Shown here: one piece after another, positions 10,911-13,288 of the stretch | How positions within the stretch are numbered: position 1 is the first letter of the stretch | Layout of the letters: each line of letters opens with the position of its first letter | DNA from: an uncultured archaeon | GTDB taxonomy: Archaea; Altiarchaeota; Altiarchaeia; IMC4; SCGC-AAA252-I15 | Assembly: GCA_902384455.1 (NCBI GenBank) | Contig: CABMCB010000032.1 | Location: forward strand, 1 to 47,123 | Direction of reading: 5' to 3' | DNA: 47,123 bases | Program-made: the position numbers and the translations under genes | The notes under the pieces: model-generated | Seen by the model: only the letters and a program-made list of their open reading frames with translations | What the model was told of the DNA's origin: nothing | Database searches by the model: none

Positions 10911-10983
10911 TAGCCCCGGCAGGATTCGAACCTGCGTCGCCCGGTCCAAAGCCGGGCAGGATTGGCCACTACCCCACGGGGCT
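10911..10983 (-). tRNA. tRNA-Gln(TTG)
   Basis: Cloverleaf AGCCCCG...CGGGGCT-A, anticodon arm CCCGG-CTTTGGA-CCGGG and T-loop GTTCGAATC. Confidence 0.96.
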
Positions 10984-11025
10984 GTTTTTGTTGCTTCGCT
11001 CCGCAGGCAGCAGTCTATTTGGGAT

Positions 11026-11074
11026 GCAACCCTTTCTTAAAGGGTTGCTGGATAGGCCACTACCCCACGGGGCT
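11026..11074 (-). repeat. Copy of tRNA-Gln nt 1-25 (11050-11074) followed by a 10-bp palindromic hairpin (11026-11048)
   Basis: GGATAGGCCACTACCCCACGGGGCT matches 10959-10983 at 24/25. Hairpin GCAACCCTTT-CTT-AAAGGGTTGC. Confidence 0.9.
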
Positions 11075-11185
11075 GTCTGCGTAGGTACTTGGTTTCTGGG
11101 ATATGTATAGGGCAACGGGGGATTAAAAAAGAGGTTTTTACGGCAGGTAAGCCGGATATATCCTTGAAATCCGAGGAGTATTTTA

Positions 11186-12178
11186 ATGGCCGGAGACTTG
11201 GGGAAGGTTGTTGGGTTTTCTCCTGCTTACAATGAGAGGGAGGGCATTGACCGCGTGATTTCAGCTATGATAGCCAGCCGCTTGGTTGATGATATTTTTG
11301 TCGTTGATGACGGCAGTACGGATGGCACGGCCGACGTAGTCACATCTTTTCCCAGTGTCCGGTTGATTCGCCATGGTACTAATATGGGGAAGATGGAGGC
11401 TTTTTTGACGGGCATAAGGGAGGCGGAGAGAGCGGGGGCGCAGGTGATGTTTATTACTGACGCGGACATGCGCGGTTTAACTGGAGTATTGACGGACGGA
11501 ATCATTACACATTTAACAGATAGACCTGACGTTGAGATGGTGCGGTGCCCTTATTACCAGGATTTGGGTGGGGGCGACAATGAGGTATGTCCGCCAGAGT
11601 ATTCTGGCCTGCGCGCTATAACCAGAGATGTATGGCAGAGGATTCTTTCCGGCTTAGAACACGATTCGAAATACCGTCAGATTTATAGGGCGCATAGCAT
11701 ACCTGAGCCGATGCTGGATGCAGCGGTATCTGAGGGTAGGATTGTTGACTTGGATGTTGAAGAGGTAACTCTCATCTCTAGGAGGGCCGGAGGAGGAGCC
11801 ACACCCCTGGGCAAGATAAGACAGCAGATTAGACAGGCGGAGGATGTCATACGCACGAGATCTATGATAGCGGACTACACCGCACTCCTTCATGAGCTAA
11901 AGTTAAGAGGCGATCCCGCATTCGCAGGTCTATCCAACGACGGAATTAGGGAATTAGCCAGAGAGTTGGATGACCCAGACATGGACGACATACTAAGGGC
12001 GTCGCCTACGGCCTACGCTAAGCATGTTCTTGATTTGAGGACGGCTTCGCGCAATCCTGGCATTCCCTTTGAGGGGCGGGCGGACTTGCGTAGGCAGGCG
12101 CGGATGCTTTCTGTTGACGAGGTGCCTAAGCCGCCTCCAAAGGATGCGGACGCCGGCCAGAAGAAGGATAAGGTGTAG
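11186..12178 (+). CDS. GT2-family glycosyltransferase with divergent C-terminal extension
   Basis: SPAYNEREGI, VVDDGSTDGT, NMGK and TDAD (DxD). SD GAGGAG upstream. Confidence 0.8.
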   Translation: MAGDLGKVVGFSPAYNEREGIDRVISAMIASRLVDDIFVVDDGSTDGTADVVTSFPSVRLIRHGTNMGKMEAFLTGIREAERAGAQVMFITDADMRGLTGVLTDGIITHLTDRPDVEMVRCPYYQDLGGGDNEVCPPEYSGLRAITRDVWQRILSGLEHDSKYRQIYRAHSIPEPMLDAAVSEGRIVDLDVEEVTLISRRAGGGATPLGKIRQQIRQAEDVIRTRSMIADYTALLHELKLRGDPAFAGLSNDGIRELARELDDPDMDDILRASPTAYAKHVLDLRTASRNPGIPFEGRADLRRQARMLSVDEVPKPPPKDADAGQKKDKV

Positions 12179-12251
12179 AGCCTCAGCCGGGAATTGAACC
12201 CGGGACCTCGTGCTTACCAAGCACGCGCTCTACCAACTGAGCTACTGAGGC
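12179..12251 (-). tRNA. tRNA-Thr(GGT)
   Basis: GCCTCAG...CTGAGGC-T, anticodon arm with loop TTGGTAA and T-loop GTTCAATTC. Confidence 0.96.
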
Positions 12252-12283
12252 GGTATGGGGGATATTTGTTTTTTGATTTATTA

Positions 12284-12352
12284 GTGGGCTTGAGCGCCTT
12301 ATGGCGCGAAACCCACCTTATCCGTCGGATAATTCCGACCTACTGAGGCGGT
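12284..12352 (-). repeat. Copy of the tRNA-Thr 5' end plus 3 leader nt (12340-12352) followed by palindromic hairpins
   Basis: CTACTGAGGCGGT is identical at 12242-12254 and 12340-12352. Hairpins at 12324-12339, 12318-12332 and 12284-12316. Confidence 0.8.
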
Positions 12353-12403
12353 GAATTGATGCGAAGTGAGGTAGTATTTTTGCGTTTTCCGGATAAAAGC
12401 GTT

Positions 12404-13288
12404 TTATAGCAGCGCTCCGGCGTAAAAAGCCAGCATGCTGATGGCTTGGCCTAACACAAGCATCCTTTGGGTGAGTGTTTCGTGCATTGTGTGGGCTGCG
12501 GCGAATACTGCTGCTGCAAGTAGCGTGAAGGGTAAGTATGCTGTTGTGTTGAATGTTTGCGGCGCTATGAATAGGGGGGCGAATCCTACTATTACTGCGG
12601 TTAGGGTGGATGTTTCTGCGATGCGTTTGGCCCATTTTACTCCGTAATGTATGGGTATTGTTTGGCTGTATTTTTTCATGTCGCCTTCCCGGTCTTCTAC
12701 GTCTTTGATTATTTCGCGGCTTAGTGTTGAGAAGAAGCTTGCGACTACGAGGGTGATTATGAGTGTGAGGCGGCTTATTTCTGGGACTGGAGATGCGGAT
12801 TCTGCGGCTGCGGCTCCGTAGAGGAAGAGGGATGAAACGAGGTATGCTACCGCGAAGTTTGATATCCCAAGCAGCGTTTTGCCGTATAAGCCGTATAGGA
12901 CGAGTATTATAGTGTTTCCTACTACGATAACCAGGCATAGCGTGCTTATTGATTTGGCAAGGCCCAATCCTATCAGGAACATTGCGATTGCGAGCATCAG
13001 TGCGTCAGGGCGGGTTATTCTTCCGCTGGGTATGGGCCGTTTAGGTCTGTTGATTCGGTCTATTTCGTGGTCGTAGTAGTCGTTGAGGACGTTTCCTGCG
13101 CCCATTATTAGTGCCGCGGACAATGCGGCGTAGAATACTGCCGTGTCTATGGTAGGGTGCGATGTGGTTGCCGCCGTAAGCAGGGCTCCCAAGTAGACGC
13201 CGACAAAAGATAAGGCGGCGTTGCGCACGCGGATTAACTCTAGGAATGTTTTAATTGAGCCCAGAAAGCTTGCTTCAACGGATTCCAT
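12404..13288 (-). CDS. Digeranylgeranylglyceryl phosphate synthase (UbiA family)
   Basis: NDYYDHEIDRINRPKRPIPSG and REIIKDVEDREGD motifs; polytopic membrane protein. Confidence 0.9.
   Translation of the reverse strand: MESVEASFLGSIKTFLELIRVRNAALSFVGVYLGALLTAATTSHPTIDTAVFYAALSAALIMGAGNVLNDYYDHEIDRINRPKRPIPSGRITRPDALMLAIAMFLIGLGLAKSISTLCLVIVVGNTIILVLYGLYGKTLLGISNFAVAYLVSSLFLYGAAAAESASPVPEISRLTLIITLVVASFFSTLSREIIKDVEDREGDMKKYSQTIPIHYGVKWAKRIAETSTLTAVIVGFAPLFIAPQTFNTTAYLPFTLLAAAVFAAAHTMHETLTQRMLVLGQAISMLAFYAGALL

Follow-up and report, generated by a model that had tools for sequence, protein, structure and literature searches.

Short hairpin-bearing inserts between repeated tRNA ends at tRNA-Gln and tRNA-Thr in an archaeon treated as Altiarchaeota

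The tRNA-Thr(GGU) locus of Caldiarchaeum subterraneum consists of a fragment of tRNA nt 1-27 with its native flank, an insert, and a complete gene (Sugahara et al. 2012, PMC3293823). In the available part of that report, its authors ascribed the arrangement to integration of a mobile element and linked it to intron gain and gene splitting (PMC3293823). Here we describe two neighbouring genes, tRNA-Gln(UUG) and tRNA-Thr(GGU), each preceded by a copy of its own 5' end and a hairpin-bearing insert. Both lie in a 47,123-nt stretch of archaeal DNA (CABMCB010000032.1; hereafter the window), which is contig C32 of a 2.41-Mb, 103-contig metagenome-assembled genome (MAG) that was treated as Altiarchaeota and is 92% complete. 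The assignment follows from its CDC48 protein, which shares 77% and 74% identity with proteins from records under the names Candidatus Altiarchaeales and Altiarchaeota. As far as the Caldiarchaeum locus is described in that text, it is laid out like the window, with native flank and 5' fragment, insert, and complete tRNA-Thr(GGU). However, its insert is 1.87 kb long, encodes a putative recombinase, and is itself a repeated element, whereas the inserts in the window are ORF-free (ORF, open reading frame) hairpin modules of 64-85 nt, and a large share of tRNA genes is involved.

Other archaeal systems are similar in part. In Thermococcales, pTN3-like integrases of the SSV family have the 5' half of a tRNA gene as attB (PMC8371274, available part). 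As described there, these elements are like the window loci in that the 5' part of the tRNA is targeted, an intact gene is regenerated, and expression then relies on sequence borne by the insert. In contrast to the window, where no integrase remnant was seen, integration splits their integrase gene, within which the att site is located, and they have the size of plasmids or viruses. Partial tRNA fragments near tRNA loci of Aeropyrum pernix and Thermosphaera aggregans were read as traces of integration or rearrangement (Chan et al. 2011, PMC3218864); the accessible text of that paper presents few cases and no defined short cassette, fixed spacing of about 100 nt, or shared hairpin modules. The introns of Thermoproteales are like the present modules in being related short sequences at several tRNAs, and here the same modules occur as canonical introns. 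Unlike those introns, the window inserts leave the mature sequence uninterrupted, since the full gene follows. Fujishima et al. in 2010 reportedly proposed transposition of tRNA introns in Thermoproteales, with related short sequences at different positions and in different tRNAs, and duplications of flanking exon sequence are said not to be part of that description.

No description of the layout was found in the available parts of the literature on Altiarchaeota or DPANN (Altiarchaeales genomics, MITEs (miniature inverted-repeat transposable elements), ARMAN tRNAs, and DPANN EndA). The remodelling of tRNA genes in these archaea is pervasive and has apparently not been described so far.

Repeated 5' ends at tRNA-Gln and tRNA-Thr

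A reading made from the letters of the window alone (the sequence-only reading) had described both loci, on the transcribed strand, as a TATA-like box, a tRNA 5' fragment, one or more hairpins, an A-rich spacer, and the intact tRNA. For Gln, this layout and the offset of 91 nt were borne out by ARAGORN, Rfam, and an exact repeat of 22 nt. For Thr, the layout and an offset of 98 nt were upheld by ARAGORN, Rfam, an exact repeat of 13 nt, and TATA-like boxes upstream of the displaced copy (Table 1; copy 1 is the upstream copy and copy 2 the one within the intact gene). The exact repeats take in 2 nt of leader at Gln and 3 nt at Thr, as had been stated, and the tRNA-Gly and tRNA-Glu genes of the window have no upstream self-copy, again in line with that reading. 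The hairpins directly follow copy 1 at both loci, and both inserts are free of ORFs and of oligo-T runs. The earlier remark that the inserts share no sequence is correct for the two compared with each other, as they bear no mutual resemblance, but each belongs to a module family that is present at other tRNAs; the Gln insert is a degenerate copy of the T/A-hairpin family described below.

The significance of the repeats was assessed with 7000 shuffles of tRNA upstream regions, in which the length of the exact self-match was scored. A match of 13 nt was reached in 1 of the 7000, which speaks against the chance origin that the sequence-only reading had still allowed for the 13-bp Thr match. Real upstream matches of at least 13 nt were present in 6 of 35 host-type tRNAs, namely 5 true self-copies and 1 neighbouring paralogue. 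Support from public DNA reads (4 runs, one study) is thin: they yielded one 151-nt contig, 100% identical, that spans the flank, Thr copy 1, and 72 nt of the insert (12268-12418). The public-read contigs were all short and 100% identical; none bridges both copies and none shows an insert-free allele. The lack of a bridging contig and the mere 13 nt of the Thr match are the points in favour of chance similarity or an assembly artefact, an explanation that we consider extremely improbable. Besides the result of the shuffles, the Thr fragment stands exactly at the orthologous gene start, the same layout occurs in dozens of independent assemblies, and repeats of 13-27 nt are too short for misjoining of contigs. 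The recurrence of the feature across many independent assemblies speaks against an assembly artefact. The Gln and Thr repeats are neither chance nor artefact.

The polarity of the Thr locus was determined by synteny. Full-length orthologues of the adjacent UbiA gene lie directly upstream of tRNA-Thr(GGU) in two relatives, G011 (45% identity, gap of 63 nt) and G027 (49% identity, gap of 50 nt), which provide the empty site. In the window, the distance from the UbiA stop codon is 54 nt to copy 1 and 152 nt to the full gene. Copy 1 therefore occupies the orthologous start position (54 vs 50-63 nt) and is the ancestral start, and relative to these two genomes the next 98 nt are an insertion. A similarity to the promoter of tRNA-Thr(TGT), a paralogue, was seen in the sequence that precedes copy 1 (shuffle p=0.0025). 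There was no significant similarity between the sequences before copy 1 and copy 2 (p=0.80), nor between the promoter-like part of the Thr insert and the Thr-CGT promoter (p=0.24).

Table 1. Features of the two loci in the window (position 1 is its first letter), with the further 5' and 3' loci on other contigs of the MAG
Feature	Position	Strand	Details
Intact tRNA-Gln(UUG)	10911..10983	-	ARAGORN; Rfam tRNA 61 bits
Gln repeat copy 2	10964..10985	-	2 nt of leader and tRNA nt 1-20, within the predicted functional gene; exact 22-mer twice
Gln insert, 64 nt	10986..11049	-	hairpin 11026-11048; linker ATCCCAAATAGA 11014-11025; A-rich spacer
Gln repeat copy 1	11050..11076	-	stranded leader and tRNA nt 1-25; BLAST 27 nt, 96.3%, mismatch at nt 21
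Gln exact 22-mer ACAGCCCCGTGGGGTAGTGGCC (transcribed strand)	10964-10985 and 11055-11076		period 91 nt
Gln TATA-like box CTATACATAT	11101..11110	-	start 36 nt before copy 1
Intact tRNA-Thr(GGU)	12178..12251	-	ARAGORN; Rfam tRNA 74.5 bits
Thr repeat copy 2	12242..12254	-	3 nt of leader and tRNA nt 1-10
Thr insert, 85 nt	12255..12339	-	two hairpins, TATA-like box, A-rich leader
Hairpins of the Thr insert	12284-12339	-	hairpin 1 GTCGGAATTATCCGAC 12324-12339; GGATAAGG 12316-12323; hairpin 2 12284-12316
TATA-like box CTAATAAATC inside the Thr insert	12275-12284	-	
Thr repeat copy 1	12340..12352	-	stranded ancestral gene start; exact 13-mer
Thr exact 13-mer ACCGCCTCAGTAG (transcribed strand)	12242-12254 and 12340-12352		period 98 nt
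Native Thr promoter region	12371..12400	-	TATA-like boxes 12371-12382 and 12391-12400
UbiA prenyltransferase gene, synteny anchor	12404..13288	-	Pfam UbiA 1e-35
tRNA-Arg(TCG), further 5' case	C71		21-nt copy
tRNA-Met, intron-bearing, further 5' case	C74		15-nt copy
tRNA-Asn, further 5' case	C20		13-nt copy
3' mirror loci	C21:2540-2760; C71:134422-134743; C94:47668-47942		

Recurrence of the layout and shared hairpin modules

ARAGORN called 138 tRNAs in the MAG, about 35 of which look host-type; 89 of the 138 sit in three arrays (contigs C4, C38, and C59) of bacterial or phage-like genes with encoded CCA that are non-host. When the tRNAs were scanned for upstream self-matches, as the sequence-only reading had proposed, the pattern was found to recur both in the same genome and in relatives. 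The same 5' geometry was present at three further host tRNAs, giving 5 of 35 host-type tRNAs with self-copies of 13-22 nt located 89-104 nt upstream. One of these three (C71:59039-59134, minus strand) was called by ARAGORN as tRNA-SeC(tca) with an intron and is better interpreted as a tRNA-Arg(TCG) that holds a canonical intron of 22 nt. We also considered a duplication that always reaches far into the leader, and rejected it for Thr (leaders unrelated, p=0.8); at Arg(TCG), Met, and Asn it holds partly by eye, and automated extension mostly failed.

A mirror-image layout was found at tRNA-Leu(CAA), tRNA-Lys, and tRNA-Leu(TAG), each having an 18-21-nt copy of its own 3' end 110-223 nt downstream; the Leu(TAG) repeat extends to 26 nt by eye. 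The order at such loci is the full tRNA, an insert of about 65-220 nt, and a copy of the 3' end, 14-26 nt long, that begins within the T-loop or directly past it. Inserts of about 600 nt, each ending in a tRNA 3' fragment, lie behind tRNA-Arg(TCG) (C71:58419-59039) and tRNA-Arg(CCT) (C71:49057-49678), and the ORFans within them (154 and 170 aa) could not be convincingly assigned to any Pfam or PHROG family. The displaced Arg(TCG) 3' fragment carries a T-loop interruption of about 56 nt, like a relic intron near 59/60. Separately, tRNA-Ser genes (upstream of C23 3820 and C71 84405) are preceded by a minihelix made of an acceptor 5' strand GCCGAGGTA, a hairpin, and an acceptor 3'-like strand AACCTCGGCA, which may be a collapsed tRNA copy.

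For relatives, we collected 130 distinct tRNAs from related genomes, metagenome contigs, and the same genome, a set biased towards Gln, Gly, and Thr loci and hairpin hits. A 5' repeat of at least 12 nt was present in 29 of the 130, with a period of 77-142 nt in 25 of the 29. Repeat lengths ranged from 12 to at least 40 nt, and the inner end of the repeat fell at tRNA nt 7-25, and once at nt 38. For tRNA-Gln, the 5' repeat was found in 5 of 24 loci of relatives, all in the family of the window, with lengths of 19-32 nt and periods of 105-142 nt; these five loci hold at least 4 unrelated inserts, yet all of their repeats end at nt 17-20. The same Gln insert occurs in G011 and G019, which are of different genera (the first 59 nt or so differ at about 2 places by eye), and other genomes of the genus of G019 have a different Gln insert or none. 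One relative, G012, was sampled without bias through all of its Rfam tRNA matches. It had a 5' repeat in 7 of 27 tRNAs and a 3' repeat in six tRNAs, the latter 14-19 nt long, with starts 14-17 nt ahead of the 3' end and a period of 75-86 nt. At the G012 3' loci (L207, L210, L213, L216, L220, L226, and L231), GAGATAAGCGAG..CGAGCGG stands right before the fragment in at least 4 and in looser form in a fifth. Two loci (L175:1-365 and L097:1-400) contain perfect tandem arrays of 105-nt and 103-nt units, respectively, in at least 3 copies of module, leader, and tRNA-Gly 5' fragment, and both arrays end in a full tRNA-Gly(TCC), which implies amplification or repeated insertion. Two CDC48 neighbour loci (L001 and L002) had no tRNA.

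The inserts fall into module families. The T/A module is a T-rich/A-rich palindromic hairpin (e.g., CCCCTTTCTTTCTT-loop-AAGAAAGAAAGG) with a small linker hairpin and then a second tract of purines behind it. The genome-wide hairpin search that had been suggested from the sequence gave 16 copies of the T/A hairpin in this genome, 14 of them at tRNAs. The 14 comprise 8 copies at 4-9 nt past a tRNA 3' end, 2 in canonical introns, 3 behind 5' fragments, and 1 beside a 3' fragment. Subfamily A is more than 90% alike among the Ala trailer, the Val(CAC) trailer, a Met intron, and the Arg(TCG) 5' insert, and subfamily B is common to a Met trailer and the Met 5' insert. The second family (Thr type) consists of GTCGGAATTATCCGAC, GGATAAGG, and a second hairpin, and its hairpin 1 is identical (16/16) across genera. 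This module follows the 5' fragments of Thr in the window, of tRNA-Gln in G009, and of two G012 tRNAs (Gly-GCC and Ser-CGA by ARAGORN). In G019 and G007, it lies upstream of tRNA-Thr(GGU) with no fragment, and hairpin 1 with GGATAAGG occurs at two further places in G009, one of them lacking any tRNA over a distance of 130 nt. The CTCGCT-loop hairpin of relatives was absent from the host tRNAs of this genome.

Metagenome contigs gave 47 T/A hairpin hits, 23 of which were at tRNAs (12 in introns, 6 in trailers, and 5 upstream), while the remaining 24 were mostly on low-GC contigs. A covariance model of the T/A module, built from loci of the same relatives that were later searched, matched in 52 of 61 genomes of the phylum, with at least 52 copies in the richest genome and 11 in the genome of the window. 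Of five control archaeal genomes, four had no match and one, a Micrarchaeia MAG (G061) from another DPANN-type lineage, had 20; G061 contains a tRNA-Thr(CGT) with a 5' repeat and T/A module (L234:290-460) and a tRNA-Ser with tandem 3' fragments (L233:1-300). The linker of the module is a covarying mini-hairpin (e.g., L146:844-900(-) and L149:156-212(+)). Among 80 copies in the fetched loci, the purine tract behind the hairpin mirrors the purine arm of the hairpin in 60, is direct in 1, and was undecided in 19. As a sequence feature, the mirror tract suggests an element that could form an intramolecular triplex (Y.R*R) at tRNA genes. The ends of the module are not inverted repeats of each other, and Rfam searches of 13 loci (E up to 0.1) found tRNAs only, with no match of the modules to C/D-box or any other family.

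Origin of the inserts

The reading that we lean towards is that both loci are footprints of short non-autonomous cassettes that inserted in the D-arm, with the gene regenerated. A structured, ORF-free cassette of about 60-85 nt (one or two hairpins and an A-rich tail) would have entered the D-arm region of an existing tRNA gene and come with the final bases of the leader and the tRNA 5' end in a second copy, so that a complete gene stood downstream. The original gene start would have been left next to the native promoter as a dead fragment, and the downstream copy would be the functional tRNA. The cassettes belong to tRNA-associated module families that also form trailers and canonical introns in Altiarchaeota. 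Since the repeats consist of each target's own sequence, the process must copy or match the local tRNA end; and since one module family occurs with repeats of many tRNAs, the local target would be copied or matched rather than one fixed attP. We keep the reading to a short non-autonomous cassette and leave the enzyme aside, because the repeat lengths are too variable for a classical transposase.

Transcription of the remodelled genes appears feasible. A clear TATA box was present in 17 of 30 host tRNA genes, with the box starting at -49 to -27 (median -40). All five loci of this genome have a TATA-like box upstream of copy 1, some of them weak or further upstream, and a box belonging to copy 2 itself is present at Thr (CTAATAAA at -33) and Asn alone and lacking at Gln, Arg, and Met. 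As the inserts contain no oligo-T run and the MAG contains RNase P RNA, a read-through precursor with a leader of about 100 nt is workable. At Gln, the transcript would start from the native promoter, and the structured leader of about 100 nt would likely be cut off by RNase P, whereas at Thr, transcription could start at the TATA-like box within the insert. The order of events at Gln, the copy in use, the transcription starts, and the insertion machinery are those that we infer from these features.

Several observations weigh against insertion of a cassette. Y1_Tnp and Cas1 were absent from the 92%-complete MAG, and no recombinase is encoded in cis. The only reverse transcriptase (RVT) is on a 3.2-kb low-GC contig, and tyrosine-recombinase (PF00589) matches are confined to other contigs, where two of them lie next to tRNA-Ser genes of bacterial type that encode CCA. 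The span of repeat lengths given above is unlike the fixed target duplication of any transposase, and an element of the attP type would require tRNA pieces that match many different tRNAs. No empty site was found for Gln because synteny differs in the relatives, and a search of metagenome contigs with a 26-nt flank pattern for a strain-level empty allele gave 0 hits. The identity of Thr copy 1 over 13 nt despite unrelated leaders is odd for an old neutral relic, so gene conversion or function is possible. Likewise, the in-register splicing motif predicted in the Gln precursor (see below) means that copy 1 may not be dead. The promoter and the copy used would, moreover, be assigned from sequence features.

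The sequence-only reading had suggested scars or miniature forms of an element that targets the tRNA 5' part and restores the gene, and part of this stands. The features of an attachment (att) footprint that were found are direct repeats of the tRNA end, an intact gene at one border, and the Thr empty site, and the layout recurs. However, no integrase (whole or split) or element-sized cargo lies between the repeats (inserts of 64 and 85 nt), and the predicted larger versions with an integrase, HUH transposase, or nuclease between such repeats were not found. If the loci were instead deletion scars of integrase-bearing elements (pTN3-like or pNOB8-like), the repeats would be attL and attR with the interior lost. 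A displaced native 5' end, an insert, and a regenerated gene are indeed the layout of archaeal elements that target the 5' end, as far as the available parts of two papers describe it (PMC3293823; PMC8371274). The ends of the repeats, like known att crossovers, are also located in the region of the D-loop, anticodon loop, or T-loop, and C71 holds the two inserts of about 600 nt with 3' fragments. This origin is nevertheless quite unlikely. Random deletion would scatter the insert sizes, which are tight (the narrow range of periods in 25 of 29 loci); the inserts are conserved modules shared with introns and trailers, with no integrase remnants; no integrase was seen between any repeat pair; one module occurs with repeats of many different tRNAs; and the T/A hairpin pattern had 0 hits in viral contigs.

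An origin by rearrangement of an intron, which we judge unlikely, would begin with a non-canonical D-arm intron, after which a copy free of it (cDNA, paralogue, or allele) would have recombined in on the 3' side only, leaving 5' exon, intron, and full gene; read in reverse, the layout would be the first step to a new intron. The inserts are homologous to bona fide canonical introns, and the fragment at L158 corresponds exactly to tRNA-Gly nt 1-38, with an intron-type module behind it. The 3' repeats begin some 14-17 nt short of the 3' end, close to positions 53/54 and 59/60 of the T-loop, at which the available text of the ARMAN paper places tRNA introns of ARMAN-2 (PMC3239211), the displaced Arg(TCG) 3' fragment holds a T-loop insertion, and the Gln precursor is predicted to form an in-register bulge-helix-bulge motif. 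Yet part of the leader is repeated as well (2-3 nt in the window, and as many as 12 or more elsewhere), which excludes a mature-tRNA cDNA; no host-like reverse transcriptase was found in the MAG; the orthologous Thr genes of relatives have no D-arm intron; and the strict splicing motif is present at only 3 of 29 loci, Thr not among them. A leader kept by selection, whether as a competing acceptor strand, a processing or termination device for tRNA maturation, or a small RNA of its own, is very unlikely in our view. Constraint is suggested by the identity of copy 1 and copy 2 within each genome though tRNA-Gln differs between genomes, by the invariant hairpin 1 of the Thr type, by the mirrored purine tract of the T/A module, and by folds more stable than those of shuffles (z -3.7 and -5.8). 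Many orthologous tRNA genes, however, have neither fragment nor module, the inserts at one site are wholly different between genera, and G019 and G007 carry the Thr module with no fragment. The pairing of copy 1 with the tRNA 3' strand in minimum-energy folds is an automatic energetic tie of identical strands and not evidence.

Three further candidates fit poorly. A MITE or other DNA transposon does not fit, given the lack of terminal inverted repeats, the variable repeat length, and the absence of Y1_Tnp and Cas1. A split (trans-spliced) tRNA does not fit an intact gene 91 or 98 nt downstream, and no significant partner piece is present elsewhere in the MAG; a search for other partial copies of the Gln and Thr tRNAs (at least 14 nt and 90% identity) found two, neither significant (E 0.03 and 0.5). 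A bulge-helix-bulge intron proper does not fit the contiguous full tRNA that follows the insert, which leaves the mature sequence uninterrupted. Taken together, the finding is real, non-random, and recurrent, and we preferably read it as a miniature variant of insertion footprints targeted to tRNAs, with a tie to intron and trailer modules.

Predicted splicing motif and further features of the genome

The two Gln copies pair in silico by domain swapping into an in-register bulge-helix-bulge motif with both outer helices (hBHBh'), with bulges AGU/AGU, a central helix GGCC/GGCC, and the two D-stems as outer helices. Predicted cleavage at this motif would yield a normal tRNA; Thr does not form the motif. 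The MAG has one gene for the splicing endonuclease EndA, at C71:38338-38598. Among the 29 loci with 5' repeats, the strict motif was present at 3 (0-2 in shifted controls) and a relaxed motif at 13 (0-7 in controls), the latter being partly automatic for a repeat that holds a palindrome. In 12 of 29 loci, which are not independent, the repeat end was at most one base away from a tetranucleotide palindrome (AGCT, GGCC, or CTAG), against a background of 16.8%, and we regard a link between repeat ends and such tetranucleotides as suggestive only.

It is conceivable, if somewhat unlikely, that the loci are snapshots of the birth of non-canonical tRNA introns and split tRNA genes. Under such a scheme, the duplication would render the insertion harmless, and with a palindrome-bearing loop (GGCC in tRNA-Gln), the splicing endonuclease could already excise the insert according to the predicted fold. 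Later decay of either copy would then give a true intron or a plain leader. The origin of tRNA introns, of their non-canonical positions, and of split tRNAs is a long-standing question for which, until now, only a few cases at single loci have been at hand. Dozens of fresh and comparable events are available in this lineage, with the same modules recurring in leader inserts next to a 5' fragment, in canonical introns, and in trailers next to a 3' fragment, and the polarity of insertion, the choice of target, and the role of the splicing endonuclease become testable. The fragments and modules also help to explain the poor tRNA counts of such MAGs and can lead the annotation of tRNAs astray.

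Between the two remodelled tRNA genes of the window, a 330-aa ORF with an N-terminal glycosyltransferase family 2 domain extends over 11186-12178(+), and its stop codon adjoins the 3' end of tRNA-Thr. The three non-host tRNA arrays span C4 2065-9860, C38 18856-28629, and C59 49310-58891, with 25, 30, and 34 tRNA genes, respectively, and these contigs are probably huge-phage or other foreign DNA binned with the archaeon. Weak RNase P RNA-like matches lie within two of the arrays, at C59:51272-51549 and C38:25233-25510.

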